Below are positions 25,929-53,990 of a stretch of DNA of 64,000 nucleotides, piece by piece. Below the pieces are notes generated by a model that was not told the DNA's origin, did no database searches, and was given only the letters and a program-made list of their open reading frames with translations. The position numbers and the translations under genes are program-made. Origin of the DNA: Halarcobacter sp. (GTDB lineage: Bacteria > Campylobacterota > Campylobacteria > Campylobacterales > Arcobacteraceae). The stretch is from NCBI GenBank assembly GCA_963676565.1, contig OY781089.1, forward strand, positions 2,432,001 through 2,496,000. The letters are read 5' to 3'. Numbering within the stretch: the stretch's first letter is position 1; every line of letters begins with the position of its first letter.

Positions 25929-25991
25929 TAAACTTTTTTATATAATTATTATAATGCCTTAATAACTATAAATCCAAAATAAATTTTCCAC

Positions 25992-26039
25992 TCAAAAGAC
26001 ATTAAAACTATACAAAAAAACATACTTATTCAATAAAAT
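25992..26039 (+). promoter_or_regulatory. Cluster promoter motif, site A (SDR operon)
   Basis: TCAAAAGACA-N7-TATACA-N19-TAAAAT. Confidence 0.65.
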
Positions 26040-27232: not shown

Positions 27233-27238
27233 TATATT

Positions 27239-28478: not shown

Positions 28479-28527
28479 ATAAATAGACAAATTATTCATA
28501 CAAAAAAACTTCATTTGATTATAAAAT
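28479..28527 (+). promoter_or_regulatory. Cluster promoter motif, site B (lipocalin-ufa operon)
   Basis: ATAAATAGACA-N7-CATACA-N19-TAAAAT, followed by RBS AGAGGAG. Confidence 0.7.
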
Positions 28528-28547
28528 CACTTTCAAGAGGAGTTCAT

Positions 28548-31086: not shown

Positions 31087-31087
31087 A

Positions 31088-32841: not shown

Positions 32842-32844
32842 GCC

Positions 32845-34014: not shown

Positions 34015-34021
34015 GGAATAG

Positions 34022-34789
34022 ATGAAAGTAGTATTGACAATTGCAGGAAGTGATAGTAGTGGAGGAGCTGGTATTCAAGCTGATTTAAAAACCTTTGAAA
34101 ATTTTGGAGTTTTTGGAGCATCAGTTTTAACAGTTTTAACAGCTCAAAACACAACAGGTGTGAGAAGTATTAGCCAAATAGATTCAAACTTTGTAAAAGA
34201 ACAACTTGAGATGGTTTTTGATGACTTAGAAGTTGCAGCAGTAAAAATCGGAATGCTTTTTTCAAATGAGATTATTGACACAGTAAGAGAATTTATAAAA
34301 GGTTTAGATATTCCAATAGTATTTGACCCAGTTTTTGTATCAAAAGCAGGTTCTAAACTTTTAAGTGATGATGCAGTAGAAAATATGAAATCTTTATTTC
34401 CCTATGTTACAGTAATAACTCCAAATACCTTTGAAGCAAAGGGTTTGTTTAACTTCAATGAAAACAATGGTAATGGAGTTGAAGAGATTAAATCTTTACC
34501 TTGTGAAGTTTTAATTAAAAATATAAAAAAAGGTACTCAAAGTATTGATAGACTTTATTTAGGTGAAAATATTATAGAGTTTGAATCTGCATTTTTGAAT
34601 TCTGAAAACACCCATGGAACAGGTTGTAGTTTTAGTAGTGCAATAGCTGCTAATATTGCCTTAGGCAAAAGCTTAGAAGATTCAATCTCAATTGCCAATA
34701 AATTTGTTTTTGAAGCAATTAATAATGCCCCAGGAATAGGAAAAGGGAAAGGACCGATTTCTCATAAAAAAGGGTTTGAATCATTATAA
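34022..34789 (+). CDS. thiD: Hydroxymethylpyrimidine/phosphomethylpyrimidine kinase
   Basis: LTIAGSDSSGGAGIQADLKTF, THGTGC. Confidence 0.93.
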   Translation: MKVVLTIAGSDSSGGAGIQADLKTFENFGVFGASVLTVLTAQNTTGVRSISQIDSNFVKEQLEMVFDDLEVAAVKIGMLFSNEIIDTVREFIKGLDIPIVFDPVFVSKAGSKLLSDDAVENMKSLFPYVTVITPNTFEAKGLFNFNENNGNGVEEIKSLPCEVLIKNIKKGTQSIDRLYLGENIIEFESAFLNSENTHGTGCSFSSAIAANIALGKSLEDSISIANKFVFEAINNAPGIGKGKGPISHKKGFESL

Positions 34790-34801
34790 ATTTAAAAAGG
34801 T

Positions 34802-35167
34802 ATGAAAAAAATGAAAGCAATAATATTTATAGCCCATGGTAGTAAAAAAGAACAGTCAAATAATGAATTTGTAAATCTAATTGAAAAAATTTCAAAAGAA
34901 GATACTAAATATGATTTAAAAAAAGCAGCCTTTTTAGAACTTGCAACGCCTAGTATCCAAGAAGTTGCCGTAGAGTTTATAAAAAAAGGTGCAATATATA
35001 TTAGTTTTTATCCATATTTTTTAAACTCTGGAAAACATGTATTAGTTGATCTTCCTATTATCATAGAAGATTTAAAAAAAGAGTATCCCCTTGTGGAGTT
35101 TAAATTACTTTCACATTTTGGAAAATCTGAGAAAATAAAAGATATTATCCTTTCTGATATAAACTAA
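34802..35167 (+). CDS. Small CbiX/SirB-type chelatase
   Basis: AHGS, AFLELA.P, PYFL..G.H...D.P. Confidence 0.85.
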   Translation: MKKMKAIIFIAHGSKKEQSNNEFVNLIEKISKEDTKYDLKKAAFLELATPSIQEVAVEFIKKGAIYISFYPYFLNSGKHVLVDLPIIIEDLKKEYPLVEFKLLSHFGKSEKIKDIILSDIN

Positions 35168-35173
35168 AACATC

Positions 35174-35222
35174 ATAAACTTACATTTTTAGCCTACTAAT
35201 TTCCCACTAATTATAAGATAAT
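35174..35222 (+). promoter_or_regulatory. Cluster promoter motif, site C (degenerate; renalase-like operon)
   Basis: ATAAACTTACA-N7-CCTACT-N19-GATAAT. Confidence 0.45.
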
Positions 35223-35240: not shown

Positions 35241-36167
35241 ATGAACGTAGCAATTATTGGAGCAGGTTTTAGTGGTTGTCACTTATATAAAAATCTATCA
35301 CAAAAACAATTTAGGGTAACTATCTTTGATAAATCAAGGGGATGTGGAGGGAGACTTAGTACCAAATATATTGGTGATAAGTTTATTGACCATGGAACCT
35401 CTTCAATTAATATACATGATAAAGAACTAATTGATTTTTTAGATAAAAAAGTTAAACAAAATATTCTTCAAAAAAGTGATAACAACTATATTCCAACAAA
35501 TGGAATAAACAAGCTTTGCTCTTCAATGATAGATAAAAAAGACCTAATTAACAATACTAGAATAATCAAAGCACATTATAAAAATAAAAAATGGTTTTTA
35601 TTTGATGAAAAAGGTAAAATGTACCAATCATATGATTTATTGTTATTAACTAATCCTGCAACACAAATTTTAGAAATGGATCTAAATCTTAATAATGAGA
35701 TAAAAGATTTGTTAAAAGATGTAAAATATACACCAATTAGTACACTTATTTGTTATGATAAAAATAGTAATGATTTAGATTTATCATCACTTGAAAAAAA
35801 TACTAATTTCAAAAAAGTTGTTGATAACTCATCAAAATATCAATACAAAGATTTTAAAAGTTTTGTATTACATTTAAATGAAGAATTTACACAAAAAAAT
35901 ATAGATCTTCCAAAAGAGAAGCTTTTTGAAAAGATTTATTCATTAATTAAAAAAGAGGTAAATATAGATATAAAAAATAAGTTTGAAACTATAGAACACC
36001 TTTGGAAATATGCTTTTGTAGAAAATACAATTAATAAAGAATATATTTTTGACACTAATCAAAACCTAGGGATTTGTGGGGATTATTTTCAAAAGAAGAA
36101 CCTAGAAGGTTCATTTTATAGTTCAAATAAATTATCAGAAAAAATCATAAATTTAATAAAGGAGTAA
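35241..36167 (+). CDS. Renalase-like NAD(P)/FAD-dependent oxidoreductase
   Basis: IIGAG.SG, DKSRG.GGRLST, DHG, H.WKYA, CGD......EG. Confidence 0.85.
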   Translation: MNVAIIGAGFSGCHLYKNLSQKQFRVTIFDKSRGCGGRLSTKYIGDKFIDHGTSSINIHDKELIDFLDKKVKQNILQKSDNNYIPTNGINKLCSSMIDKKDLINNTRIIKAHYKNKKWFLFDEKGKMYQSYDLLLLTNPATQILEMDLNLNNEIKDLLKDVKYTPISTLICYDKNSNDLDLSSLEKNTNFKKVVDNSSKYQYKDFKSFVLHLNEEFTQKNIDLPKEKLFEKIYSLIKKEVNIDIKNKFETIEHLWKYAFVENTINKEYIFDTNQNLGICGDYFQKKNLEGSFYSSNKLSEKIINLIKE

Positions 36168-36452: not shown

Positions 36453-37511
36453 TTGAAATGTGACAAATGCAATGAAAAACTAGGATTTGAATCCTTACCA
36501 TCAAAAATATATTTTGTAAGTGAATTTGATGAGCTAATGGCAAAAAGCAGAATATTCTTAATGAAATTAGGTCTAAACTTATTTAAAGTTCATGATTTAC
36601 ACTATATAAAAGTTGAGGATACAAAAGAGTTTTTTAAATCAAATATTGACGCATTAAAAGGTCACTTTAATCAAATGGCAGCTCAAGATATAAAGATTTA
36701 TATTGATTATGAAAATTTAGGTTTTTCATACAAAATGGTTTTACATGCAAAACCATTACAAAGATTCATAAACATGATAGATGATAAAGAGTTTTTTGAT
36801 GTGATAAATAATCAATCCTTAACCTCGTATTTTCAGCCTATAGTTGATGTAAAGACAAACTCTATTTATGGGTATGAAACATTAATTAGAGGGGTTAAGG
36901 CCGATGGTTCCTTAATCTATCCAGATGAATTATTCGAAAAATCTGCTAGAAATGATATGAACTTTAAACTAGATAGGATGTGTAGAGAAAGTGCTTTAAA
37001 AACCGCTGCTACTAAAAAAGTTAATAAAAAAGTATTTATTAATTTTTTACCCACATCTGTTTATGATCCTGAGTTTTGTTTACAATCAACTGTCAAATGG
37101 GCAAAACAACTAGAAATAGACCCCTCAAATATTATATTTGAAGTTGTCGAGACAGAAAAAGTAACAGACCAAGAACATCTAAAATCTATTTTAGAATATT
37201 ATAGAAATGAAGGGTTTAAAATAGCTTTAGATGATGTTGGTGAAGGGTATTCTAGTTTAAATATGATAATTGAATTAAAACCTGATATTATCAAAATAGA
37301 TAGAAATATTATTAAAGATATAGACAAAGATGATTACAAAGTCTCTGTTTATAAAGCTTTAGCTAGTTTAGCAAGGGATAGAGATATTAAGATATTAGCT
37401 GAAGGTATTGAAACAGCTTATGAGTTAGAGGTTATAAAAGAGATTGGAGTTGACTATCTACAAGGTTATTACTTCGCTAAGCCTTTACCAGAACCAATTA
37501 GAAAGATCTAG
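36453..37511 (+). CDS. EAL-domain c-di-GMP phosphodiesterase
   Basis: FQPIV, YETLIR, FINF, LDDVGEGYSSL, IKID, AEGIE, QGYYF. Confidence 0.9.
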   Translation: MKCDKCNEKLGFESLPSKIYFVSEFDELMAKSRIFLMKLGLNLFKVHDLHYIKVEDTKEFFKSNIDALKGHFNQMAAQDIKIYIDYENLGFSYKMVLHAKPLQRFINMIDDKEFFDVINNQSLTSYFQPIVDVKTNSIYGYETLIRGVKADGSLIYPDELFEKSARNDMNFKLDRMCRESALKTAATKKVNKKVFINFLPTSVYDPEFCLQSTVKWAKQLEIDPSNIIFEVVETEKVTDQEHLKSILEYYRNEGFKIALDDVGEGYSSLNMIIELKPDIIKIDRNIIKDIDKDDYKVSVYKALASLARDRDIKILAEGIETAYELEVIKEIGVDYLQGYYFAKPLPEPIRKI

Positions 37512-41649: not shown

Positions 41650-42162
41650 TTACTCTTGTATTGTCCAAATAAACTTTGAGGTATCAAAACCTTTTTTTGA
41701 GGCTATATCTATTAATCTTTTTTTCGTATTTTCATCAATTGTTTTTGTTCTACTTAATATCCAAAGATATTCTCTACTTGGACTTCCAACTAATGCATAT
41801 TTATAGTCTTTATCTAAATCAATAATCCAGTAATCTCCATAAAATGGTCTAAAGAAACTAACTTTTAATTTTGAATTAGTAATATCAGTAGCATAAGCTA
41901 CCCCTTTTGCTTCTTTTTTCTCATTAGTTTCAATTTTTGTACATCTGTTGATAACTCTTATTTTTTCATCTTCAAGTAAACTATAATTAGCTGTAACATT
42001 CTTGCATCCTTTTTCAAAAAAGTGTTCAAATCTAGCTATTTCATACCAAGTACCTAAGTACCTATTTAAATCAACTCTGTTTTCTGTTGCTAGGGGCTCA
42101 TACTTTGTTGAACATCCCACAAAAAAAATTATAGCTACTGTTAATATTAATTTTCTTATCAT
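41650..42162 (-). CDS. blc: Outer-membrane lipoprotein lipocalin Blc
   Basis: Lipobox FVGC, RYLGTWYEIAR, LKVSFFRPFYGDYW, YLWILSR. Confidence 0.9.
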   Translation of the reverse strand: MIRKLILTVAIIFFVGCSTKYEPLATENRVDLNRYLGTWYEIARFEHFFEKGCKNVTANYSLLEDEKIRVINRCTKIETNEKKEAKGVAYATDITNSKLKVSFFRPFYGDYWIIDLDKDYKYALVGSPSREYLWILSRTKTIDENTKKRLIDIASKKGFDTSKFIWTIQE

Positions 42163-42164
42163 CT

Positions 42165-43454
42165 TTACTCCTTTATTTTATATATGTTCTTTTTTACATC
42201 TAATGCCATTTGTTTATAATCAAAACTTGGTATCAACTCTTCTTTTCCAAGCCATTTTTTCACATACTCTTTTCCACCATAAAAGCTTGATTGTTTAACT
42301 GGGTCAAATATTCGATACTCTTTATCATTGCCAACACCTGCTTGATAAGCAAAGTTACCATAATTTGAAGCAGGATTATAATCTAATAAATACTCTTCAA
42401 AAAATGCTGCACAATATCTAAAATCTAAACCAAGATTTTTTATAAAATAGCTTGCTAATAATTGTCTTTGCCTATTACTTATCCAACCTGTCTTTTTTAG
42501 TTCTATAACTCCTGCATCAATTATATCAATGCCCGTCTTAGCATTAAAAAATAATTCTAATTTATCTTTATTATTTAAAAAATTATACTTTTTATAAATT
42601 AGTCCCTCTTTTAAAAAAAGTCTATTTTCACTTTGAAGCATTACAAAATGAAAAAAATCTCTCCAAAGTAATTCAAAAAAAATCCAATAAGAAGATTTTG
42701 AAACTCCTAATTTGTTTTCATACTCTTTTATTTTATAATACAAAGTTTTAACACTAATACAACCACTTGCTAAATAAGAGGAAAACTTTGTGGAATTATT
42801 AAATCCATCTACTAAACTTCTAGTATCATAATAAATGTGGATATATTTAGATAAATATTCATCAACTCTTTTCAAGGCGTTTGTTTCTCCACCTTTTAAA
42901 ACTCTTTTATTTTCGTCAAAAGATAAGTTTATCTCTTCAATTTTTATACACATAAAAAGTTTATCTTTTGAATCAATCACTTTTATAGGTTCTTTTATAG
43001 TCATTTTTTCTGCTTTTTTTCTAAAATGACTAAAACTTTTAGTGTAATCAAACTCAAATGGTTCTAACATTGTTTGATTAAAGAAGCTTTTACCCTTGTA
43101 TTTTTCTAGCTTCTTTTCAAATTTCCTTTCTTCAACTCCGACTTCTTTTTCAAAAAAAACTCTTAAATCATAATCTTCATTTAAAAGCTCAAGTGTTATT
43201 TGTATATCCTCAACTATATAAAGCCAAATATTTTTTTTCAGTAAATTTTTCTTTAAATCAATTAAGGACTCATAAATAAATTGTTTTCTAAACTCTCCAC
43301 ATTTATTAAATCCAAGATTATTCCCTTTTAAAATCTCCAAAGAATAAAGACATATCATATTTTCACAGCATTTTGAGGCTTCATTTAAAGCTAGATTATC
43401 ATGTATTCTAAGATTGTTTCTAAAAACTGTAATACAAAGTTTTGGCTTACTCAC
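42165..43454 (-). CDS. DASH-family cryptochrome
   Basis: FRNNLRIHDN, STKFS.YLA.GC.S, YWIFFELLWRDFF, SNRQRQ, SNYGNFAYQAGVGND. GTG start behind GAGGAG, overlapping the upstream stop. Confidence 0.85.
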   Translation of the reverse strand: MSKPKLCITVFRNNLRIHDNLALNEASKCCENMICLYSLEILKGNNLGFNKCGEFRKQFIYESLIDLKKNLLKKNIWLYIVEDIQITLELLNEDYDLRVFFEKEVGVEERKFEKKLEKYKGKSFFNQTMLEPFEFDYTKSFSHFRKKAEKMTIKEPIKVIDSKDKLFMCIKIEEINLSFDENKRVLKGGETNALKRVDEYLSKYIHIYYDTRSLVDGFNNSTKFSSYLASGCISVKTLYYKIKEYENKLGVSKSSYWIFFELLWRDFFHFVMLQSENRLFLKEGLIYKKYNFLNNKDKLELFFNAKTGIDIIDAGVIELKKTGWISNRQRQLLASYFIKNLGLDFRYCAAFFEEYLLDYNPASNYGNFAYQAGVGNDKEYRIFDPVKQSSFYGGKEYVKKWLGKEELIPSFDYKQMALDVKKNIYKIKE

Positions 43455-44835
43455 TAAATAACTCCTCTTTAAATCTTTTTGCATTATTCAAATGGTTTTG
43501 AAGTTTCTCCTCATCCATTTTATTTAGTAATGAAATTTGCATTTTCATTCTTGGATTGTCTTTGAAAAGATGATTATATTTATATAAAAAGCTCCAATAT
43601 AAACCATCCCAGATTTCACACCAACTTTCACTTTTTTTATAATCACTTGACATTTTTAAAATATAGTTACTACTACTTATATATGGTTTTGTTGTAATTG
43701 AACCACCGTCACTAAAACCACTCATACCATATACATTTCCAACCATAACCCAATCATATGCATCAATATAGTTTGCCATAAAAAACTCATATACACTATT
43801 TGGTTTTATCTCTAAAAGTAAAAATAAATTTCCAATTATCATAAGTCTTTCTATATGATGGTTATATGAAGTAAGCTTTAGTTTTTTTATTACATCATCA
43901 AAGGGTTTTAATGAAGTATCTCCTTCATAAACTTTTTTAGGAATCTCATTTTCAAAACCAAAAAAATTGGAATTTCTAAGTTTTACATGGGAAGTTTTAT
44001 AGATAGAAAGCATAAACTCTCTCCAAGCAATTATTTGTCTTAAAAATCCCTCTTTTGCATTAAAAGGTACATCAACCTTTGAAGCTTCGTTTATTAGATA
44101 TTTTAAATCTAAAAGTCCAACATTTAAACTTGAAGAGATATTTGAATGAAATAAAAAAGAGCCTTTTTCTACAATTGCATCTTGATAAACACCATATTTT
44201 TTAAATTTATTTTTTAGAAAATAACCTAGGTTTGCCCTTGCCTCTTCAAATGTTATTGGATAAGTAAACTGTTCGCAAGTTCCTACGCTTTTGAATTTCT
44301 TGCAATACTCTTTTGCTTCATGTAAATATTTATTTTCAAAATTTAGTATTTGAGGAACTAATTCATTCTTTGGCATCTTCTTTCTATTTTCACTGTCAAA
44401 ACTCCATTTTCCACCATAAGGTTTACCATTTTCAACAAATAGATTTAATTCTTTTCTTCTATTTATATAGTATTTGTGTAAAAACTTATTTTCATCATTA
44501 ACATTTAAAAAATTTGGGTTCTCAAGAATTTTTATTTTTTTAAAATTTCTTTTTATTTTTTTCAATAACCAGTCATCAACAACATCATAAATAACTATCT
44601 GTTTATCTTGATATGTTTCTAAATATCTCTCATCTTCATAATATTCCACATCGATTTCATTTTTTAGTAAATACTCTTCATAAAACTTCATTGAAGCTCT
44701 ATGAAAAATAAGTTTTTGTATATGAAAAGTATATAAAGTAAAGAACAAAGGCTCTTCAATTAGAAGAACCTTTTTATTTTTTAGATTTTCAATATTTTCA
44801 AATAATTGATGAGGATATAATATAAAGATATTCAA
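43447..44835 (-). CDS. Bacterial (6-4) photolyase-type (PhrB/CryB, FeS-BCP clade) protein lacking Fe-S cysteines
   Basis: YPHQLF, H.QKL.FHRASM, GGKWSFD..NR, EGF.RQII.WRE, HHIERLM, DAYDWVM..NV.GM, TKPYISS.NY. Confidence 0.88.
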   Translation of the reverse strand: MNIFILYPHQLFENIENLKNKKVLLIEEPLFFTLYTFHIQKLIFHRASMKFYEEYLLKNEIDVEYYEDERYLETYQDKQIVIYDVVDDWLLKKIKRNFKKIKILENPNFLNVNDENKFLHKYYINRRKELNLFVENGKPYGGKWSFDSENRKKMPKNELVPQILNFENKYLHEAKEYCKKFKSVGTCEQFTYPITFEEARANLGYFLKNKFKKYGVYQDAIVEKGSFLFHSNISSSLNVGLLDLKYLINEASKVDVPFNAKEGFLRQIIAWREFMLSIYKTSHVKLRNSNFFGFENEIPKKVYEGDTSLKPFDDVIKKLKLTSYNHHIERLMIIGNLFLLLEIKPNSVYEFFMANYIDAYDWVMVGNVYGMSGFSDGGSITTKPYISSSNYILKMSSDYKKSESWCEIWDGLYWSFLYKYNHLFKDNPRMKMQISLLNKMDEEKLQNHLNNAKRFKEELFSE

Positions 44836-44853: not shown

Positions 44854-45789
44854 TTAAGCACATCTGTTTTCAAATAAATCTTTTAGAGTTTCAAGGAAAT
44901 ATTGATTATGGTTTGGAGCCTTTGCTACTCTATAATCTTTTATTCCAACCTCATCGGCAATCTCTTTATACTCAATGTCAAGTTCAAATTGTGTTTCAGA
45001 GTTATCTACTGTAAAAGATATTGGATAAACAATAACCTTTTTATCTTTCATCTCATGAAGCTTATCATCCATATATGGTCTAATCCATTCCATTGGTCCT
45101 AGTCTAGACTGATATGCTGTATGTATATTCTTAAACTTAATACCTTGTTTTTCTAACTCCTTCTTTGCACACTCTACATTTGCAAGAATATGCTTTTGAT
45201 AAGGATCACCTTTATCTATAGTTCTTTGAGTTAAACCATGTGCAGAAAAGATTAATTCAAACTCTTCTGATTTATCATCTCCTAATGTCTCTTTTATTCT
45301 CTCTACTATTGCTTTATTATATAACTCATGGTCATAATATGAATCTAAGGTTTTAATCTTACCTTTAATACCTAATTTCTTTGCCCATTTTTCAAACTCT
45401 TCAATTGATGATTTAGTTGTAGTTGAAGAATAGTGTGGATACATTGGAATTGCATATATTTCATCATAAGGCTTTAAGTCTTTTAATACATCTTTAGCAA
45501 AAGGTGGTGTGTATCTCATCTTATAAAATACATCAGCATCAACTATTTTTTCTAGTCTTCTAGCTAATCTTTTTGTATGACCTACTATTGGAGACATTCC
45601 CCCTAGAGCTTTATAGTTTTCTTTTGCTTCTTTTTTTCTCATACTTGTAATAAAAAAGCCTATCATTGCTCTTATTGGTTGTGGAGCTCCAATTATATAT
45701 TTATCATTAAACATGTTTGTTAGGAAAACCTCTACCTCATTTAGGTTATTAGGTCCTCCCATGTTCATTAGTACAATTGCTTTTTTCAC
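44854..45789 (-). CDS. hemH: Ferrochelatase
   Basis: LMNMGGP, GG.SP, MRY..P, SAHGL, YQSRLGP..W, F..DNSET..EL. Confidence 0.95.
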   Translation of the reverse strand: MKKAIVLMNMGGPNNLNEVEVFLTNMFNDKYIIGAPQPIRAMIGFFITSMRKKEAKENYKALGGMSPIVGHTKRLARRLEKIVDADVFYKMRYTPPFAKDVLKDLKPYDEIYAIPMYPHYSSTTTKSSIEEFEKWAKKLGIKGKIKTLDSYYDHELYNKAIVERIKETLGDDKSEEFELIFSAHGLTQRTIDKGDPYQKHILANVECAKKELEKQGIKFKNIHTAYQSRLGPMEWIRPYMDDKLHEMKDKKVIVYPISFTVDNSETQFELDIEYKEIADEVGIKDYRVAKAPNHNQYFLETLKDLFENRCA

Positions 45790-45808
45790 TTATATCCTTT
45801 TTATTAGG

Positions 45809-45857
45809 ATAATATTTAAATTGGCTGTTTTTTTGTATGTAATTCTTGTTAGTTTAT
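45809..45857 (-). promoter_or_regulatory. Cluster promoter motif, site D (hemH-phrB-cry operon)
   Basis: Minus strand ATAAACTAACA-N7-CATACA-N19-TATTAT. Confidence 0.7.
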
Positions 45858-46316
45858 ATTATTTTGTTGAGATAAAATTTCTTTAGTGATTTTATGTCTA
45901 AAGCTAAACATACTATCTAATTCTTTTTTTACAAAGAAATTAAAAAGCTTACCAAATCTTCCAAAGGGTAAAACATATAAAACTTCATCTTTCAATTCTA
46001 CACTATTACCTCTTTTAGTAAATATATGGGAATGTTTCCAATACCTAAATGGAGACTTCATCGCAAAATCTACAAGTAAATTAGGTTTTTGATTTTTTAA
46101 TATCTTAACTTCCCAATATATTGGAATAGGCATAAGTTTTTTTACTGTTTTTAATCGTAGAACTTCATGCTCTTTTGCTTCAAAGCTATCATTTAACATA
46201 GTTACTTTCATATCAGGAGGAGTAATCTTTATTAAATTATTTGAATCAAGATGAAACTCATATAACTCCTCTACTGTACAGTTTTTTATTAATGAAGTTT
46301 TCTCATACTTAAACAT
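45849..46316 (-). CDS. SRPBCC family protein
   Basis: FH....NL..ITPP, SPF.YW.H.H.F, D...Y.LPFG, F..R. Confidence 0.85.
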   Translation of the reverse strand: MFKYEKTSLIKNCTVEELYEFHLDSNNLIKITPPDMKVTMLNDSFEAKEHEVLRLKTVKKLMPIPIYWEVKILKNQKPNLLVDFAMKSPFRYWKHSHIFTKRGNSVELKDEVLYVLPFGRFGKLFNFFVKKELDSMFSFRHKITKEILSQQNNIN

Positions 46317-46320
46317 TTAC

Positions 46321-47175
46321 TTAGCCTACTAAATCTTCTATAGTATCTTCTATATTTGTATATTTAAATTTAAAACCACTATCAATTAATCTTTTTGGTT
46401 TAGCACATTGTCCATCAGTTAAAACCTTTGCACCTTCACTAAATATCAAGTTTAATGCAAACTCAGGTACGGGGAATATTGTAGGTCTATTTAAAGTTTT
46501 TCCTAAAGCTTTTGTAAGTCCTAAATTAGTTGTTGGTGTTGGTGCTGTTAAGTTATACACCCCTTCACATTGTTTATTTTCTATTACATGTTCATAGGCA
46601 TCCAATAAATCACTTATATGAATAAATGAAAAATTTTGTTTCCCATCTCCAATGGTACCACCAACTCCAAGTTTAAATGGAGTTAACATCTTTTTTAAAG
46701 CTCCGCCATCACCTAATACAATACCAAATCTAAATATTGCTGTTCTAATATCTAATTCTTTAGCCTTTAAAGCTTCAGCTTCCCAATCTTTTGCTAATTT
46801 ACCTAAAAAATCTTTTGAATAATTAAAGTCATCTTCGTTATAACAAGCAATATTGTCATATATACCAACTGCTGAAGTTGATATTAAAAGTTCAGTTTTT
46901 TTTTCTGCTTTTTCAAAGGCTTTGATTAAAGCTTTTGTAGTATCTATTCTACTAGAGTATAATAATTTTTTATAAGACTCAGTCCATCTGTTGATAATAT
47001 TTGCACCAGCAAGATTAATAACTACATCTGCTTTTTCTATAGTTTTTGTAAGCTCTTTTATATCTTTAAGGGTTTCTCTTTTGATTCCAATTACTTTAAA
47101 TCCCTTATTCTCAAATCTATTTTTAATACTAGTACCAACAAAACCACTTGAGCCAGTTATTGCTAAAGTTTTCAT
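46321..47175 (-). CDS. TIGR01777 family NAD-dependent epimerase/oxidoreductase
   Basis: ITGSSGFVG, VINLAGA.I..RWT, SAVG.Y, RFGIVLG.GGAL, GQ...P..L. Confidence 0.9.
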   Translation of the reverse strand: MKTLAITGSSGFVGTSIKNRFENKGFKVIGIKRETLKDIKELTKTIEKADVVINLAGANIINRWTESYKKLLYSSRIDTTKALIKAFEKAEKKTELLISTSAVGIYDNIACYNEDDFNYSKDFLGKLAKDWEAEALKAKELDIRTAIFRFGIVLGDGGALKKMLTPFKLGVGGTIGDGKQNFSFIHISDLLDAYEHVIENKQCEGVYNLTAPTPTTNLGLTKALGKTLNRPTIFPVPEFALNLIFSEGAKVLTDGQCAKPKRLIDSGFKFKYTNIEDTIEDLVG

Positions 47176-47204
47176 ATCTACTCCTTTGCAATTTAATTTT
47201 ACAA

Positions 47205-47252
47205 ATTATAATATATTTATGATTTATTGGTATATTTTATTTGTTAGTTAAA
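47205..47252 (-). promoter_or_regulatory. Cluster promoter motif, site E (TIGR01777 operon)
   Basis: Minus strand TTTAACTAACA-N7-TATACC-N18-TATAAT. Confidence 0.7.
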
Positions 47253-47257
47253 CCTTT

Positions 47258-47965
47258 TTAAAAACTTCTTTTATCTAGATATTCTCTAAAATCTTTTGCC
47301 CCATCCTTAGAACTTGTCACAATATCATCAATTCCATTAAATGATATCTCTAACTTAGATTGTTCTACACTTTGCATAGATTTAATCTTATCTACATTTA
47401 CAATATATGACCTATGTATCCTAAAGAAATTTTTACCTTCTAATACAGACTGCATATCTCCAATCTTTTTTCGTAAGTAAGCATCTGCATCTTTGATTTT
47501 TATAATAACTTCATCTAAATCAGCTTTGATATAAAAAATATCATCTATATCAATAAGATAGATTTTATTTCCTCTTTTTGCCACAAGTTTTTTTGTTTCA
47601 TCAGCTTTTACAATATATTTTTTCATTTTATCCAATGAGTTTTTTATTGATTCATTTGAAATTGGTTTTAGTAAATAATCAATACCACCACTTTGAAAAG
47701 CTTCAAGTGCATGCTCTTCATATGCAGTTTGAAATATAATAAAAGTTTTTGGATTTAAATTTACTATTGTGTTTGCTAACTCTAAACCATTCATATCTGG
47801 CATTGATATATCTAAAAAGGCAACATCAAACTTCTCTTTACTTAAAATTTTTATTGCTTCAATAGCACTAGAACAAGCAGTAACATCTAAAATCCCTTCT
47901 TCATTTAAAAGTCTATTTAATCTACTAAGTGCTAATTTTTCATCATCTACTATCAATACTTTCAA
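47258..47965 (-). CDS. LytTR-family response regulator
   Basis: IVDDE.LA, FLDI.MP..NG, TAY, DYLLKP; LytTR signature FFRIHRSYIVN. Confidence 0.93.
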   Translation of the reverse strand: MKVLIVDDEKLALSRLNRLLNEEGILDVTACSSAIEAIKILSKEKFDVAFLDISMPDMNGLELANTIVNLNPKTFIIFQTAYEEHALEAFQSGGIDYLLKPISNESIKNSLDKMKKYIVKADETKKLVAKRGNKIYLIDIDDIFYIKADLDEVIIKIKDADAYLRKKIGDMQSVLEGKNFFRIHRSYIVNVDKIKSMQSVEQSKLEISFNGIDDIVTSSKDGAKDFREYLDKRSF

Positions 47966-47967
47966 TA

Positions 47968-48957
47968 CTAATCCTTCAAGCTTATTATAAATTTCATACT
48001 AGAACTATCTACTTGATGGCTTAATCTTCCAACATCAAGCAGATCTAATCTTTTATCAAGATTATTTAAACCTGTTCCATATTTTATTCTTTGAGATAGT
48101 TTACCATTATTTATTATAACAATCTGCTTTGAAGAAACTAAAACATCTATTTTTAGTTTATTTCTATTATATCCATGCTTTATTGCATTTTCTACTAATA
48201 GTTGAATAGAAAACTTAGGTACTAAAATATTTTCATCATCTTCATTTAACTCAACATTTAGTTCAATATTATTCTCAAACCTAATATTTTCAATATTTAA
48301 ATAGGTTTTAACCATATCAATTTCAGTTTTAATTGGAATTAAACTCTCTTTAGTAATGGCATTACGTAAAAACCTAGATAACTCAAGGGTTGCTCTCTCT
48401 GCATCTTTTTTATCTACATATATTAATTCAGAAATAGAATTTAAGGCATTAAATAAAAAATGTGGATTTAATTCATTTTCTAAAGCTTTAATTTTTGTTT
48501 CTAAAACTTGAGAATGTATATTTTCATATCTATGTTTCATTGATACAAATTGGTGTAATATTAGTCCAATTAAAAATGTGAGAAATCCAATAATTATAGA
48601 GATAAAAAACCAATAAGGACTTATAAACTCTACTATTTCAATTTTAAAAAAAGAACCAAAATAAAAACTAAAAGAGAAACCTAAAAACCCAGATAAAAAT
48701 GAGAAAAAGAAACTAATCAAATACCAAAATTTCTCTTTGAGCTTTGGTAATATAAAATCATTTGAGATTGTAATAAATACAAAAGAAAATAAAGAGATAC
48801 AAAAAGCCGTTAAACTACTAAAAAGTACTGTGTATACATTTTTGAATTCTTCATTTAGAAAATAGAAAAACCAAGAGATTAAAAACCCAAAACTAGTTCC
48901 TATAAATATTATATAAAGCCAGTCTCTTTTTGAAATTTTTAATTTTATTCTATCCAT
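47968..48957 (-). CDS. LytS/YehU-type membrane histidine kinase
   Basis: About 4 TM with short loops, L..ELNPHFLFNALNSI, E.IRF, Q.LVENAIKHG, GTGL.N...RL. Confidence 0.9.
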   Translation of the reverse strand: MDRIKLKISKRDWLYIIFIGTSFGFLISWFFYFLNEEFKNVYTVLFSSLTAFCISLFSFVFITISNDFILPKLKEKFWYLISFFFSFLSGFLGFSFSFYFGSFFKIEIVEFISPYWFFISIIIGFLTFLIGLILHQFVSMKHRYENIHSQVLETKIKALENELNPHFLFNALNSISELIYVDKKDAERATLELSRFLRNAITKESLIPIKTEIDMVKTYLNIENIRFENNIELNVELNEDDENILVPKFSIQLLVENAIKHGYNRNKLKIDVLVSSKQIVIINNGKLSQRIKYGTGLNNLDKRLDLLDVGRLSHQVDSSSMKFIISLKD

Positions 48958-50368
48958 TAAATTCCTTGTTTAAAGCTTTTACTCCAATTGCAACGCCAGG
49001 CCATCCTTGACCTGCAAAAACTGAGTCTCCAATATTGTATAAACCTTTAAAGGGTGTTTTAGCACTAGGAGTTGAAAAAATATTTTTCATAGTAATAGCT
49101 CTACCTCCACAATTATATCTATTTACATACCTGTTAAAGGTAAGTGAAGTAGCACTAAATTTTTTTATTATATCCTCTTTTTTTATAGTATTAAGTTTCT
49201 GCAATAGTTTTTCTATAATAAACTCTTGGGTTTGCTCTTTTTTTAATTCATACTCATCTTTATCTAACTTTTTCCAAAAAGAAGCCTTTGTATGAGAAGA
49301 GATTGTAACTGAGAATCCCCTTTTTGACATCTTTTCATCATCTTTACTACTAATAGAGATAAAAAATGAATTTGAGATACAATTTGGTATCTGTTCATCA
49401 AGAATTATTAAATAATGGTGTAAAAGATCATAATTTTTTTCTAATACCAAATTTACTACAAAAGCACTTTGGTCATTGAACTCAAAACTATCATAATATT
49501 TTTTTATTCTTTCATCTTCAAAAAGTTTTCCACTATCATAAATAGTAGAGTTTAATACTACATTCTTTGATAAATATTCATCTTTATTTGAGATTAGTCT
49601 AAAATAGTCTTTTTCTAAAACTATTTTTATAATCTCCTCTTTTTTCTTAATTTCAATATCTTCAAGTAAACCATCAAATAAACTACCCATTCCACCATTT
49701 ACATAAAATACATCATGAAAAGGGTATGAAAGCCCTAAAGCTAAAGAAAGAAGTGATATATCCTTTGATGTTGTTTGTAAAGTAATCAAAAGTTGTGCAT
49801 CAATAAAATGTTGATACTCTAAACTTATATTTCCAAGGGTTTCTTTTATAAAACTATTTGCACTTTTAAATACTTCAATATTAAAACTTCTAAAAAGTTT
49901 AATTAGAGTATTTGCACTAAGTATATAAGATTTTAAAGAATATTTTCCATAATAAATATCATGGATTTGCCAAAACTTTTCATCAAGCTCTTTAATTTTG
50001 GCCCAAAAAGCTCTATTATTTTTATTTGGGAAAGCTTTATTAATTTGGTCTAAAAACTCTTCAAAATCTTTTACTCTATCAATTGTTTTTCCATTTTGAA
50101 AAACTCTAAAAGCTATATTGCTTTTTTTGATATCAGGATTATAATTTGCATAATCAAAAATCTCTTTTACAGGATGGTTTTCTTCAAAGCCTACAAAAGT
50201 AGTTGCCCCACTATTAAAAAAACTTCCATATCTTTTAAAAGTACTTGCACATCCTCCTAAGTTTGAATCCTTTTCAAATACCACTATATCTTTATCGCTA
50301 TTTAATGAGGCAAACATACTGCCTCCCATTCCAGAGCCAATTACACAGAGTTCATAATATCTACACAT
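48950..50368 (-). CDS. Phytoene desaturase (CrtI)-superfamily FAD oxidoreductase, CrtD/CrtH-like
   Basis: VIGSGMGG, GGCASTFKR.G..F..GAT, GGMG.L, GDSVFAGQG..GV. Start moved to ATG 50368, which overlaps the phr stop and follows AGAGG. Confidence 0.8.
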   Translation of the reverse strand: MCRYYELCVIGSGMGGSMFASLNSDKDIVVFEKDSNLGGCASTFKRYGSFFNSGATTFVGFEENHPVKEIFDYANYNPDIKKSNIAFRVFQNGKTIDRVKDFEEFLDQINKAFPNKNNRAFWAKIKELDEKFWQIHDIYYGKYSLKSYILSANTLIKLFRSFNIEVFKSANSFIKETLGNISLEYQHFIDAQLLITLQTTSKDISLLSLALGLSYPFHDVFYVNGGMGSLFDGLLEDIEIKKKEEIIKIVLEKDYFRLISNKDEYLSKNVVLNSTIYDSGKLFEDERIKKYYDSFEFNDQSAFVVNLVLEKNYDLLHHYLIILDEQIPNCISNSFFISISSKDDEKMSKRGFSVTISSHTKASFWKKLDKDEYELKKEQTQEFIIEKLLQKLNTIKKEDIIKKFSATSLTFNRYVNRYNCGGRAITMKNIFSTPSAKTPFKGLYNIGDSVFAGQGWPGVAIGVKALNKEFNG

Positions 50369-51692
50369 TTTTAGCCTCTTTAAATCTATCAATTGCCATT
50401 TTTCTTGATAAAGAGATATCAACAATAGATTTTGGGTAATCAACAAATAAATTTGACTGAACACCATTTTCAATATGAAAAAGTCTAGGAGATAAACTCT
50501 CAAACTCTTTTATAACTGATTTTATAAAAATACCCTCTTTATCAAACTTTTGTGATTGGGTATAGGGATTAAATACTCTAAAATATGGTGCAGCATCAGC
50601 ACCTGTACTTGCTCCCCATTGCCATGAGCCAACATTTGAAGAGCATTCATAATCAAGTAGTTTTAGGGCAAAATACTCTTCCCCTTTTTTCCAATTTATA
50701 AAAAGGTTTTTTGTTAAGAATGAACAAACTATCATTCTAAGACGATTATGCATTGTTCCTGTTTCATTTAGATGTCTCATAGCAGCATCTATAATTGGAA
50801 CTCCAGTATTTCCTTCACACCATTTTAAAAAATCATCTTCATTTTCATTCCATTTAATACTCATACCATTAAAGTTATCAAATTGTGAATGTGGGAAGTG
50901 ATATAAAATATAATTGTAAAATTCTCTCCAAAAAAGTTCTCTAATAAACCCTTCACTGTTATCAAATTTTCTATAATAATTAAACAGTTGTCTTGGACTA
51001 ACTATTCCAAATCTTAGATGAACCGATAGTTTTGAGGTACCATCTTTAAAAAAGTAGTCCCTACTTTCTTGATAATCTTCTAATTTCGAAGAAAAATCTT
51101 CCATAAGCCTACACACATTTTTATTTAAAAACTCAGGTAATTGTACTTCTTTAAAACCCATTTCATCTAAAGTAGGAAATTTTTCATAATCAAAATCAAT
51201 TTTTTTAAGAGTTTCATTAAATTTGTATGTTTCTATATTATTTGATTGAGTTAACATAGCCATTGATTTGTAATATGGAGTAAAAACCTTATAAGGAGTC
51301 CCATCATTTTTTAAATGTTCACTTGGATGAGTGATAAAAGAATCATAAAACCTTTTCATAGGTAGAAGTTCTTCTATCTGATTATCCCTATTTTTTGCAT
51401 AATCATCAAAATCGCATGAGCATAAGATCTCATCAAAACCATCTTTTAATTTCCCAATAACTTCCTTTGGTTCACCATAAAAAATAGCTAAGTCAAGACC
51501 TTTTTGTTTTAATTGTTCTTTAAGACTTAGAACACTTTTATAAATAAAAGTAACTCTTTTATCATCTTTAGGGAGAGATTCTAAAATATTCTTATCAAAA
51601 ATAAAAATAGGCAATACTTCATCTTTTGCATATGAAAGTATTGCATTATCTTCTATTCTAAGATCTCTTCTAAACCAAAGGATTTGTCTCAT
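50361..51692 (-). CDS. phr: CPD (class I-like) DNA photolyase
   Basis: WFRRDLRIEDN, TSKLSVHLRFG, REL.WREFY, MHNRLRM, LLDY...SN.G.WQW. Confidence 0.92.
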   Translation of the reverse strand: MRQILWFRRDLRIEDNAILSYAKDEVLPIFIFDKNILESLPKDDKRVTFIYKSVLSLKEQLKQKGLDLAIFYGEPKEVIGKLKDGFDEILCSCDFDDYAKNRDNQIEELLPMKRFYDSFITHPSEHLKNDGTPYKVFTPYYKSMAMLTQSNNIETYKFNETLKKIDFDYEKFPTLDEMGFKEVQLPEFLNKNVCRLMEDFSSKLEDYQESRDYFFKDGTSKLSVHLRFGIVSPRQLFNYYRKFDNSEGFIRELFWREFYNYILYHFPHSQFDNFNGMSIKWNENEDDFLKWCEGNTGVPIIDAAMRHLNETGTMHNRLRMIVCSFLTKNLFINWKKGEEYFALKLLDYECSSNVGSWQWGASTGADAAPYFRVFNPYTQSQKFDKEGIFIKSVIKEFESLSPRLFHIENGVQSNLFVDYPKSIVDISLSRKMAIDRFKEAKNV

Positions 51693-52642
51693 TATTTAAA
51701 AGCCTCCACTTTAGATCTAAGTGCCATTTCCTTAGGATATGGAGTTAAGAACTTTTGATTATCAAGATATTCAATATTAAATCTTTTTACATAAATTTTT
51801 ATGATTTTAATAACTGCTACTAAAGGGATGATATGTTCTTTAAACTCATCTAAAGCAGCTAATATCTCATGTTTTTCCTCTTTTGTAATATATTTTTTAA
51901 AATATCCAAAAATATGCATTAAGACATTATAAGTGCTTGAAGTTCTACCCTTCAAGGCTATAGCTTCTAAAAACTTTTGTTTGTATAAAGATAATACCTC
52001 TTCAATATCTTTCTTCTCATGATTTGCAACAATTTGACCTAACTCTTTATATGACTTCTGAGATTTTGAATAAATAAGGTATTTATATGAAGTATGAAAA
52101 TCAACTAATTGACCAAATGATGGTTGTGTTTTCATAAACTCAAAAACATCTTTATAGGCAAATACTTGCATTAGAAAGTTTTCTTTTAACCATGGATCAG
52201 TTAATCTTCCTTCTTCTTCTATTGGAAGTAAGGGAAATTTTTCCATAAGCTCTTTGGCAAAAACTCCCACACCAACATTTTCACTTTGACCTTCGCCATC
52301 TGGATAAATTTTCACTCTAGCCATTCCACAAGTTGGAGATTTTGATTTTAAGATATAACCACAAAGTTCATCTTCACTAATAGTATCAACTAATCTTTTA
52401 GAGACACCAACAATATCTTTTGTAACATCTTGTTTAGTGTTTGTTGTTCTTATTATAAGTTCACCATTTATTCTTACTTGTCTAATAGCTTCTCTAGGAG
52501 TTGGATAGATTTCACCTTCTGGGCAAAAAGATCTAAATTCAAAATGTTTTGACAATTCGTCATAAACAAATTTATCCTTAGAATGTTGACCATCATATCG
52601 ACACTGTATTCCAAGTAAACATGTAGAAATACCAATTTTCAT
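51692..52642 (-). CDS. DUF523-DUF1722 (YbgA) fusion, thiouridine desulfidase-like
   Basis: GIS.CLLG...RYDG, CPE, KSKSPTCG, EEEGRL (DUF523); FH..YK, NVLMHIFGYFK, YL.NQ....P (DUF1722). Confidence 0.9.
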   Translation of the reverse strand: MKIGISTCLLGIQCRYDGQHSKDKFVYDELSKHFEFRSFCPEGEIYPTPREAIRQVRINGELIIRTTNTKQDVTKDIVGVSKRLVDTISEDELCGYILKSKSPTCGMARVKIYPDGEGQSENVGVGVFAKELMEKFPLLPIEEEGRLTDPWLKENFLMQVFAYKDVFEFMKTQPSFGQLVDFHTSYKYLIYSKSQKSYKELGQIVANHEKKDIEEVLSLYKQKFLEAIALKGRTSSTYNVLMHIFGYFKKYITKEEKHEILAALDEFKEHIIPLVAVIKIIKIYVKRFNIEYLDNQKFLTPYPKEMALRSKVEAFK

Positions 52643-52663
52643 CTTTAACCCTTTTTTTGTTTT

Positions 52664-52711
52664 ATTGTAACAAAATGAGGTATTTTTGGTATATTTTGTA
52701 TGTCAGTTTAT
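52664..52711 (-). promoter_or_regulatory. Cluster promoter motif, site F (DUF523-phr-crt-lytS-lytR operon)
   Basis: Minus strand ATAAACTGACA-N7-TATACC-N18-TACAAT, with extended -10 TG. Confidence 0.72.
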
Positions 52712-52714
52712 CAA

Positions 52715-53638
52715 TTATGACATAAATAGGAATATTGCAAAAGGGATATAGAATAAAGAGATTAAGATAGAGATAAATACAGTCAAGGACATCATTTCAG
52801 GTTTTAAATTTAAAAGCGTTGCAATAGTAACTGTGTTTCCCGCTAAAGGAACAATTGAATATAAAAACATCACTTTATAAAAACCTTCATCTAAAAGTAA
52901 TAAAAAGTTTCTATCAATATATATAAATAATAAAACAATTCCTGGCCAAAGTAAAAATTTTAAAGAAAGAGCATATGAGATAAACTTAACATCAAAAGCT
53001 TTTGCACTTTTTAGCTTTTCCATCCCCATACCTAAAAACATCATCCCTAAAATTGCATAACAACCTTTTAGATAGATTATATAATTTAAAAACATCTCAG
53101 GCATTTTTATACCTAAAAGATTAAAGGCAAAACCTAAGATAAATGCGTATAAAACAGGAAGCTGAAGAACTTTCTTTAAACTTTGTCTAGCTGTAAAGCT
53201 TCCCTTTGCCGTTATAAAATACCCAACAGAATTTTGATAAAGCATAGTTCCTAAAACTGTAAAGATAAAAACATCCACAAGATGAGGATCAAATAATATA
53301 ATAGCTATTGGAATACCAATATGCCCTGTATTTCCAGTAGAGCTTGCAAAGGCAAGAAGATTTGAAGTATTATCTTTCCATACTTTTTTAAATAAAAAAA
53401 GTAAAATAAAAGCCATAATAGAACTAGCCAAAAAGAAAAAAACTGGTAAAAAGACAACTGAACTATCAAGTTTTACACTCATTGTTGCATTAAATGCAAT
53501 TAATGGAGCCAAGATATAAAATAAAATCTTGGCAATAGTTTCTTTACTACATCCTAGAAATCTAGTGCTTATAAACCCTAAAATAACTGAAAAGTAAAGG
53601 GGTACAATTTTAGAAAGAAGTGCGAAAAAAACTGTCAT
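52715..53638 (-). CDS. AEC (auxin efflux carrier) family transporter
   Basis: About 10 TM, GNTG.IGIP, P.A.NT motif. Confidence 0.85.
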   Translation of the reverse strand: MTVFFALLSKIVPLYFSVILGFISTRFLGCSKETIAKILFYILAPLIAFNATMSVKLDSSVVFLPVFFFLASSIMAFILLFLFKKVWKDNTSNLLAFASSTGNTGHIGIPIAIILFDPHLVDVFIFTVLGTMLYQNSVGYFITAKGSFTARQSLKKVLQLPVLYAFILGFAFNLLGIKMPEMFLNYIIYLKGCYAILGMMFLGMGMEKLKSAKAFDVKFISYALSLKFLLWPGIVLLFIYIDRNFLLLLDEGFYKVMFLYSIVPLAGNTVTIATLLNLKPEMMSLTVFISILISLFYIPFAIFLFMS

Positions 53639-53639
53639 A

Positions 53640-53990
53640 TTAATCTATTAAAGTTATTTCATCCTCTTTTGTAGTAATCATACATAAAAACTCATATGGT
53701 TTATCAAAACAAGCTTCATAGTAGTGAGGAACTCCAGCTGGGATATATAAAAAGTCACCCTCTTTTGCATGAATTATCTCATCACCTATTTTTACTTTTG
53801 CCTCACCATTTAATACATATTGTTGATGTTGTATTAAATTTGTATGGTTTGGCATAGTACCACCAACTTCCAAAGAGACTTTTCTTACAATAAAGTCTTT
53901 ATCAATACTTGGAGTTAAAACTGCAATATTTGCACCATTTGTTTTTGGAATTTCATTTGTTTCATAATCTTTAATATTTTTACAATACAT
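53640..53990 (-). CDS. Cupin domain protein
   Basis: MP.H....H.QYVL.G, GD..YIPAG.PH. Confidence 0.88.
   Translation of the reverse strand: MYCKNIKDYETNEIPKTNGANIAVLTPSIDKDFIVRKVSLEVGGTMPNHTNLIQHQQYVLNGEAKVKIGDEIIHAKEGDFLYIPAGVPHYYEACFDKPYEFLCMITTKEDEITLID

Follow-up and report, generated by a model that had tools for sequence, protein, structure and literature searches.

A flavoprotein-kinase-LytTR regulator module as the candidate switch of a photo-oxidative-stress island in Halarcobacter

Which regulator controls the photoprotection genes gathered in a 64,000-nucleotide stretch of the Halarcobacter sp. genome (assembly GCA_963676565.1, contig OY781089.1, positions 2,432,001 to 2,496,000; hereafter the window, in whose coordinates features are given) is the question considered here. 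To our knowledge, the sensing of light damage in nonphototrophs is known for few regulator types, namely, extracytoplasmic function (ECF) sigma factors with ChrR, LitR/CarH, LOV, and BLUF. A sequence-only reading of the window had proposed that a histidine kinase gene (47968-48957, minus strand) and a LytTR response regulator gene (47258-47965, minus strand), both embedded in a photolyase operon, replace RpoE-ChrR or LitR in this organism. Our comparative analysis suggests, with moderate confidence, that these two genes and the gene for a CrtI-superfamily FAD flavoprotein (crtLike; 48950-50368, minus strand) act together as the dedicated master switch, under positive autoregulation, of a photo-oxidative-stress island of 27 kb.

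The host genome is a single contig of 3.34 Mb with a completeness of 99.97 %. In the window, a run of minus-strand genes, with junctions that overlap or nearly touch, leads from a 2-thiouracil desulfurase-like/DUF1722 gene (51692-52642; PF04463 and PF08349; the DUF523 gene of the sequence-only reading and of the text below) through a cyclobutane pyrimidine dimer photolyase gene (50361-51692; PF00875 and PF03441, with NCBIfam photolyase models matched only below their cut-offs) to crtLike (472 aa; PF13450, NAD_binding_8, and a weak match to PF01593, Amino_oxidase), the kinase (329 aa; PF06580, E 5.3e-23), and the regulator (235 aa; PF00072, the REC domain with Asp52, E 2.5e-27, and PF04397, LytTR, E 7.5e-21). 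The kinase start overlaps the end of crtLike (48950) by 8 nt, and a gap of 2 nt separates the kinase stop from the regulator start, which agrees with the earlier claim that the two-component system is tightly linked to and cotranscribed with the photolyase operon behind a promoter motif termed site F. The open reading frames, Pfam matches, and hydropathy likewise bear out the earlier description of a membrane kinase and a LytTR regulator behind these genes. A generic scan of 45700-52800 for sigma-70 promoters and terminators gave 44 promoter-like sites against 43 expected and 2 terminator-like sites against 1.6. One metatranscriptome run contains short contigs that are 90 to 99 % alike to portions of the photolyase-crtLike-kinase operon, and no operon sequence was present in three host-type RNA runs.

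Comparison of loci reveals that the conserved unit is the flavoprotein with the kinase and regulator and not the photolyase with the two-component system. Kinase orthologs were found in 22 of 24 other genomes of the genus; farther afield, 7 of the 12 other genera in the family and 4 of the 24 other families in the order have them. The order crtLike-kinase-regulator is kept in all 20 of the relatives' loci that were fetched, and DUF523 and photolyase genes stand directly upstream of the module in just 12 of them. A scan with a flavoprotein alignment, taking one genome per species, yielded 80 loci (the best 80 of 207, some of them from the same genomes as the 20), nearly all from Arcobacteraceae, Sulfurovum, Sulfurimonas, Sulfurospirillum, Nitratifractor, or other Campylobacterota. 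In 71 of these, the sequence extends 1.1 kb or more past the flavoprotein gene; 68 of the 71 have a kinase gene no more than 3 kb downstream, and in 59 the two genes are adjacent. The crtLike and kinase genes overlap at 19 of 25 measured junctions. The exceptions are L095, which falls in the same contig range as the crtLike locus (L150) of genome G033, L113, and L111, in which the pair is divergent and lies 2.4 kb upstream. The upstream neighbor of the module varies by lineage, being a photolyase gene in Arcobacteraceae and a ferrochelatase gene in Sulfurovum and Sulfurimonas. Of 401 genomes sampled from the phylum, 30 encode the kinase and 33 the flavoprotein; 29 encode the two together. The earlier reading had tied a Crt-like enzyme to the system, and this part stands, with the correction from synteny that the invariant partner is the CrtI-like flavoprotein and not the photolyase. 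Its aside that a product of the adjacent Crt-like enzyme might be the signal thereby becomes the central lead.

In Aliarcobacter loci L125 to L130, a 411-aa HD/HD_5 (HD-GYP-like) gene lies between the flavoprotein and kinase genes (e.g., L125:7475-8710). A homolog of this gene is present in the window at 32845-34014, within the lipid operon behind site B (operon B, below), and the two placements together hint at a cyclic di-GMP (c-di-GMP) output tied to the module.

What is the flavoprotein? The program-made open reading frame of crtLike starts at TTG 50503, 45 codons into the photolyase gene; all relatives begin near the GxGxxG motif, and the true start is likely ATG 50368. The protein matches the CrtD model over its full length with 138.1 bits (cut-off, 549.7), the carotenoid isomerase model with 97.2 (cut-off, 586.9), and the crtI_fam model with 27 (cut-off, 238.1). 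Its closest solved structure is PDB 4rep (E 4.5e-11, full length). The N-terminal GxGxxG is kept in the translations, no hydrophobic segment is seen in the hydropathy profile, and a C-terminal block has invariant G447, D448, Q454, G455, W456, and G458. By these matches, the flavoprotein is best described as a distant full-length relative of CrtD-type desaturases that can be placed in the CrtI superfamily only and in no curated subfamily; sources label it "phytoene desaturase family protein" or "carotene isomerase." The adjacency of hemH in Sulfurovum and Sulfurimonas hinted at a HemY-type protoporphyrinogen oxidase, and this identity was rejected because the HemY model matches residues 7-64 only, against the full-length CrtD match. 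In one relative, L047 (G038:C44), the gene that stands before crtLike, immediately upstream of 8386, ends with a sequence that, read by eye in translation, is glutathione-peroxidase-like.

The kinase has PF06580 (His_kinase) as its sole Pfam match at an E value of ≤0.01, and neither PAS, LOV, BLUF, and B12 domains nor the 5TM-LYT domain (PF07694) was detected at this threshold, in line with the earlier statement that it has no recognizable light-sensing domain. Hydropathy yields four transmembrane (TM) segments (16-34, 44-66, 80-98, and 116-134), which is the number estimated previously. The exposed loops have 10 residues or fewer, and the cytoplasmic N terminus and the 64-76 loop are rich in K and R. 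The predicted phospho-acceptor is His166 in the PF06580 DHp motif NPHFLFN; LNPHF is present in 40 of 40 orthologs, the N box VEN[AG]IKH in 37, and the G2 box in 35, and the G1-like box reads NDG in 23 and NNG in 10, including the protein of the window. At the profile level, the kinase resembles PDB 6swj, "Histidine kinase" (E 5.9e-20), no NCBIfam model is matched, and in a genome-wide profile search this is the only PF06580 gene. Across 15 orthologs, the exposed loops are the least conserved parts (mean identities of 0.27 and 0.22), whereas identity reaches 0.52 in the cytoplasmic N terminus, 0.55 in the cytoplasmic 64-79 loop (SNxxILPK motif), 0.58 in TM3 (FSFLSGF), and 0.48 to 0.63 in the catalytic core. 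This pattern points to a stimulus that is sensed within the membrane or at the cytoplasmic face and not from the periplasm. In a protein atlas, the membrane domain retrieved only Bacteroidota clusters without names, at 0.91-0.92. Fused flavoprotein-kinase forms were not seen: from 743 longer homologs of the kinase, the best 120 include no protein with PF13450 or PF01593, which is weak evidence that such fusions are absent.

The regulator is the only LytTR protein of the genome by profile search and the only DNA-binding protein identified within the island. Its best NCBIfam model is BtsR (137.9 bits; cut-off, 246), and the LytR model gives 109 against a cut-off of 375. By domains, the kinase and regulator appear to be a PF06580/REC-LytTR two-component system.

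On which DNA might this regulator act? Gibbs sampling of upstream-only sequence of the operon from the window and 18 relatives recovered a 27-bp element, ATAAACTnACA-N9-TACnAAA, in 19 of 19 upstream regions. A position weight matrix (PWM) was built from the relatives' promoters, excluding the window and a near-identical relative, and scanned over the whole genome, giving six matches above 19 bits, compared with a shuffle maximum of 17.3 bits per Mb on both strands. Five of the six are intergenic promoters inside the window. Site F (ATAAACTGACATACAAAATATACCAAA; 52685-52711, minus strand) is the promoter of the DUF523-photolyase-crtLike-kinase-regulator operon and, with 26.8 bits, the best match of the genome; its -10 box TACAAT (52669-52664, minus strand) follows after a gap of 15 nt. 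The others are site D (45831-45857, minus strand; 22.3 bits), upstream of the hemH/DPRP/DASH/lipocalin genes; site C (35174-35200, plus strand; 21.0 bits), upstream of the genes for a 308-aa flavoprotein, a 93-aa protein, and an EAL protein; site B (28479-28505, plus strand; 20.0 bits), upstream of the lipid operon; and site A (25991-26017, plus strand; 19.4 bits), upstream of the SDR/SnoaL-like/MFS_2 genes. Site E (47226-47252, minus strand), the promoter of the genes for an SDR/DUF1731 protein and a 155-aa protein, reaches 15.2 bits in the window, compared with 19 to 24 bits at this position in relatives, and is followed 15 nt downstream by TATAAT. All six motif promoters lie within one 27-kb island. 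The remaining genome match (2320046-2320072; 22.5 bits, outside the window) was rejected as a regulatory site, lying inside a coding region; the recurrence of this motif-like 27-mer in many relatives reflects conservation of the peptide that it encodes, and it could easily mislead predictions of the regulon.

At each of the six sites in the window, a TATAAT-like hexamer starts 14 to 16 nt past the motif; the distance is 15 to 16 nt in 26 of 35 nonredundant sites, and information content is flat upstream of the motif. With this spacing, the distal block falls near -54 to -44, and the proximal TAC, at about -34 to -32, overlaps the -35 region, for which the proximal block may substitute. From center to center, 13 bp separate the conserved cores. 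The regulator is the candidate DNA-binding protein for this 27-bp motif.

The motif largely follows the two-component system, in counts that come from related genomes and are not independent. With at most one mismatch, the pattern gave 92 matches, against 19 for a reversed control, in 22 genomes of the genus that have the system, and 6 matches, against 4, in 7 family members that lack it. One exact match in a genome lacking the system (G007), about 230 bp upstream of unrelated genes, was taken as chance. Genomes that have the motif and lack the two-component system, which the earlier reading had said would speak against it, were not encountered in the sample. None of five family genomes without the system has a LytTR gene, and one of the five (G033) has a photolyase gene; its DUF523-photolyase pair belongs to a different operon, where 19.9 kb of sequence contain no motif above 12 bits. 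DUF1365, a gene of operon B, is absent from all of a partly different set of five such family genomes and occurs in 12 of the 401 phylum genomes, all 12 of which have the kinase. Across the 80 loci (884 kb), among which genomes that trained the PWM recur, 93 matches exceed 15 bits, compared with 7 in shuffles, and 90 of the 93 are on the operon strand. Of 63 loci, 38 have such a motif in the 2.6 kb upstream of crtLike; of 64, 32 have one in the first 200 nt past the regulator gene; and in L050 a motif stands directly upstream of the kinase gene.

A few genomes of the phylum sample have the flavoprotein or the kinase and not both. Two of the four flavoprotein-only genomes carry LytTR genes at contig ends, probably as a result of assembly splits. 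A third, the complete genome G388, retains ordered kinase and regulator remnants (kinase residues 1-24, 118-139, and 226-275 and regulator residues 193-234; E 1e-3, 6e-7, and 1e-8) in the 550 nt that separate the flavoprotein gene from acpP (L151, G388:C1, 8699-9149), which looks like a recently decayed two-component system. The fourth, G033, has no such remnant. The sole kinase-only genome, G122, encodes a 450-aa PF06580 kinase with a different multi-TM N terminus and has no CrtI-like partner. Its kinase and LytTR regulator genes follow amine-oxidase-like, DUF1365, cyclopropane fatty acid (CFA)-synthase-like, DUF3833, and SDR/DUF1731 genes in this order (L156, G122:C8, 6422-12895), and a weak motif and then TACAAT lie upstream of this lipid operon.

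Are the known regulators of photo-oxidative stress encoded elsewhere in the genome? The earlier observation that the window has no ECF sigma, ChrR, or B12-MerR gene extends to the whole genome by profile search. No ECF sigma factor was found: only the RpoD-size sigma factor passes PF04542/TIGR02937, and a weak second match to the sigma models is a LuxR-type helix-turn-helix protein. ChrR was not found either, the sole Cupin_7 protein being a 206-aa bicupin beside a LysR gene. The search with PF02310, which was not aimed at the MerR family as such, BLUF, or LOV, found no B12-binding regulator genome-wide; such domains are confined to a 1159-aa frame, taken from its size to be MetH, and to a 136-aa glutamate-mutase small subunit encoded next to MutE.

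In its composition, the system resembles LytS-LytR, BtsS-BtsR (YehU-YehT), and YpdA-YpdB, which also join a PF06580 kinase to a REC-LytTR regulator. The LytS, BtsS, and YpdA kinases also carry a GAF module, and the regulons of these model systems concern murein hydrolase and pyruvate. The kinase of the window is no ortholog of LytS, BtsS, or YpdA and differs from them in its 329 aa and four TM segments without 5TM-LYT, its regulator falls below the BtsR and LytR cut-offs, and the module is coupled to a flavoprotein gene and a predicted photoprotective regulon. AlgZ(FimS)-AlgR of Pseudomonas likewise combines a small multi-TM PF06580 kinase that has no obvious sensor domain and has degenerate ATP-binding motifs with a LytTR regulator; its regulon comprises alginate and pili, and we know of no flavoprotein partner for it. 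AgrC-AgrA and HdrRM/BrsRM share the LytTR DNA-binding domain, whereas the kinase of the window belongs to another family and its signal would not be a peptide. In LytTR systems, a promoter-proximal site is described as driving positive autoregulation of the system's own operon (PMC6193735; PMC4227749), and the predicted site F similarly lies in the promoter of the regulator's own operon.

In domain content, the predicted outputs resemble the gene sets of Rhodobacter and Vibrio that respond to singlet oxygen or blue light through sigmaE-ChrR and MerR-type regulators; photolyase, CFA-synthase-like, DUF1365, FAD oxidoreductase, and SDR genes are common to the sigmaE-ChrR output and to that predicted here (PMC3546557, PMC7380195, and PMC5241685). 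UfaD (RSP1091), a phytoene-desaturase-like fatty-acid desaturase, is described there as needed for full activation of sigmaE by singlet oxygen (PMC3546557; PMC7380195), and tert-butyl hydroperoxide likewise activates sigmaE (PMC3546557). A phytoene-desaturase-like flavoenzyme of the regulon is tied to signaling in both cases, putatively so in the window, and the need for UfaD makes a lipid-mediated input to the kinase plausible by analogy. The kinase-linked flavoprotein is, however, a second CrtI-superfamily protein of the window: a different amine-oxidase-like flavoprotein (29093-30343), beside the DUF1365 and CFA-synthase-like genes, is the likelier counterpart of UfaD. Unlike the sigmaE-ChrR systems, the genome of the window has neither an ECF sigma factor nor ChrR, and a phosphorelay is proposed instead of anti-sigma proteolysis. 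LitR/CarH proteins are MerR repressors reported to govern photolyase and photoprotection genes in nonphototrophs (PMC9758184); the genome has no MerR-B12 fusion, the search not having covered class II LitR, which lacks B12 binding, and light-relieved repression in LitR/CarH contrasts with the activation proposed here. By analogy, the module appears to stand functionally where sigmaE-ChrR or LitR stand elsewhere. The signaling chassis and the regulon are both familiar; their joining is undescribed and the flavoprotein partner is unprecedented, no published account of a sensor-less kinase paired with a CrtI-like flavoprotein having been found in a literature search at the level of listings and abstracts.

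These comparisons suggest the following course of events. Light acting through endogenous photosensitizers, or the singlet oxygen that they produce, would alter membrane lipid or the redox or flavin state of the cytoplasmic flavoprotein, which would be a cosensor of the kinase or the enzyme that makes its signal. The four-helix bundle of the kinase, with its conserved cytoplasmic N terminus and loop, would read this change, not from the periplasm, and the kinase would autophosphorylate on His166 and pass the phosphate to Asp52 of the regulator. The LytTR regulator would then bind the bipartite 27-bp motif, with cores near -45 and -33, and activate the sigma-70 promoters A to F, including that of its own operon. 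The outputs would be three photolyase/cryptochrome-family proteins, a ferrochelatase, a furan-fatty-acid-like operon, lipocalins, dehydrogenases, and c-di-GMP enzymes. Gene anatomy, topology, the motif and its clustering, synteny, and co-occurrence are observed; in the scheme built on them, DNA binding by the regulator, the signal, what the flavoprotein does, its contact with the kinase, and the direction of regulation are all putative.

Besides the relatedness of the genomes compared and the reuse of PWM training genomes, several observations weigh against a switch of this kind. The window kinase has a short catalytic domain; its G1-like box is NNG and not NDG, and HATPase_c was not reported by Pfam at an E value of ≤0.01, so that kinase activity is assumed. 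Characterized LytTR operators are described as two 9-bp repeats ([TA][AC][CA]GTTN[AG][TG]) 12 to 13 bp apart and upstream of -35 (PMC5600425; PMC6193735), and the geometry of the window motif is unlike the direct repeats of AgrA, ComE, and BtsR. The caution in the sequence-only reading about geometry was justified: the cores here are 13 bp apart from center to center, and the proximal one overlaps -35. No second motif copy or nonamer was found at about 21 bp in the 35 nonredundant sites, and only the reverse complement of the distal block alone resembles the LytTR nonamer, fully in 11 of the 35. In addition, a motif above 15 bits is missing from the region upstream of crtLike in 25 of the 63 loci, including Aliarcobacter L125, L126, L127, L129, and L130; either autoregulation is not universal or the PWM misses variants. 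Weak motif-like sites (14 to 16 bits) lie near the flavoprotein gene in both G033 and G388, and G033 keeps crtLike with such a site (15.8 bits) and has neither a LytTR gene nor a PF06580 gene or remnants of them.

Part of this evidence could be accommodated if the motif were bound by a regulator encoded elsewhere, such as a MerR-type class II LitR or an unrecognized factor, with the two-component system as a mere member or fine-tuner of the regulon. The atypical geometry, the 25 loci without a motif upstream of the operon, and the site retained by G033 without a LytTR gene would all fit such a regulator. We nevertheless consider it unlikely, as no other DNA-binding gene is conserved beside the motif promoters in the 20 and 80 loci, motif enrichment and island genes track the presence of the two-component system, remnants of both genes of the system (E 6e-7 and 1e-8) are still found at the locus in G388, which has a motif and no intact system, and the G122 regulator is still linked to a motif-like promoter despite the absent flavoprotein and the different sensor domain of its kinase. 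The element might also be read as an ECF-type promoter, with AAC as -35 and TAC as -10. The AAC triplet is typical of ECF -35 boxes, and the conserved blocks are about 14 nt apart. This reading is very improbable, however, because in a single-contig genome of this completeness only the RpoD-size sigma factor passes PF04542 and TIGR02937, and a leader would have no use for a TATAAT-like box at a fixed distance of 14 to 16 nt past the motif.

On a separate matter, the module may regulate the island and yet respond to the state of membrane lipid (unsaturation, peroxides from any oxidant, or temperature) and not to light or singlet oxygen. We regard this as rather doubtful, and we have similar doubts about its corollary that the flavoprotein is a lipid or isoprenoid enzyme of the ordinary kind, with the kinase monitoring its substrate or product and the photolyases as passengers. 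In favor of this reading, the kinase has no chromophore domain and is conserved in the membrane and at the cytoplasmic face, the regulon is largely lipid-directed (CFA-synthase-like, DUF1365, lipocalins, and SDRs), the gene preceding crtLike in one relative is glutathione-peroxidase-like as read by eye, and the analogous sigmaE system is activated by tert-butyl hydroperoxide (PMC3546557). Against it stand the three photolyase/cryptochrome-family genes and the ferrochelatase behind the same motif, the position of the module inside the photolyase operon in Arcobacteraceae (12 of 20 loci), and the likeness of the gene set to the blue-light and singlet-oxygen regulons of Vibrio and Rhodobacter (PMC5241685; PMC3546557). 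Within the light-responsive switch that we favor, a tentative possibility is that the flavoprotein itself is the primary sensor and that the photoexcited or redox state of its FAD, or its turnover of a lipid that reacts with singlet oxygen, is read directly by the conserved cytoplasmic face and helix bundle of the sensor-less kinase.

The other genes behind the motif promoters fill out the island. Site A precedes SDR, SnoaL-like, and MFS_2 transporter genes (26058-28474, plus strand). An orphan membrane PAS-PAS-HisKA-HATPase kinase gene (23925-25928, minus strand) is divergent from this site; on inspection by eye, it shows no LOV-type NCRFL signature. Site B precedes genes for a lipocalin, the amine-oxidase-like flavoprotein, DUF1365, CFA-synthase-like, DUF3833, HD, ThiD-like, and CbiX proteins (28515-35167, plus strand), a set that looks like furan-fatty-acid-like lipid-modifying genes. 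The TTG at 28515 lies inside promoter B, and an ATG preceded by GGAG is found about 40 nt downstream, so the program-made start is probably wrong. The ThiD/PdxK-family kinase and small CbiX chelatase genes that close operon B (34022-35167, plus strand) suggest a possible vitamin B6 or porphyrin link to photo-oxidative stress; in relatives L087, L097, L099, and L112, a ThiD-like gene with its own motif stands directly after the regulator gene. Site C is followed by the genes for the 308-aa flavoprotein (35241-36167, plus strand), the 93-aa protein, and the EAL phosphodiesterase (36453-37511, plus strand). On the minus strand, site D precedes genes for the ferrochelatase HemH (44854-45789), the photolyase-related protein DPRP (43447-44835), the DASH cryptochrome (42165-43484), and a lipocalin (41650-42162), and site E precedes those for the TIGR01777 SDR/DUF1731 protein (46321-47175) and the 155-aa protein (45849-46316). 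Directly upstream of site F, and 72 bp from the DUF523 gene on the same strand, lie the genes for a cupin (116 aa, weak Cupin_7 match) and an AEC-type membrane transporter (52715-53990, minus strand), a pair shared with no relative but the closest one (L037).

Arcobacter-, Sulfurovum-, Sulfurimonas-, and Sulfurospirillum-like bacteria have familiar photoprotection genes and none of the regulators searched for, and the module is a testable candidate for the missing switch, with three genes, one predicted 27-bp operator, six promoters, and one island. If this reading is true, a function would be assigned to one branch of the very large and mostly uncharacterized class of small PF06580/LytTR systems. 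If the flavoprotein makes the signal, or is the signal, it would be the second independent CrtI-like enzyme in photo-oxidative signaling, after UfaD of Rhodobacter. If it is the primary sensor, it would represent a new class of flavin-based receptors of light or photo-oxidation wired to a two-component system and would be the Campylobacterota counterpart of ChrR-sigmaE, CarF-plasmalogen, and LitR.

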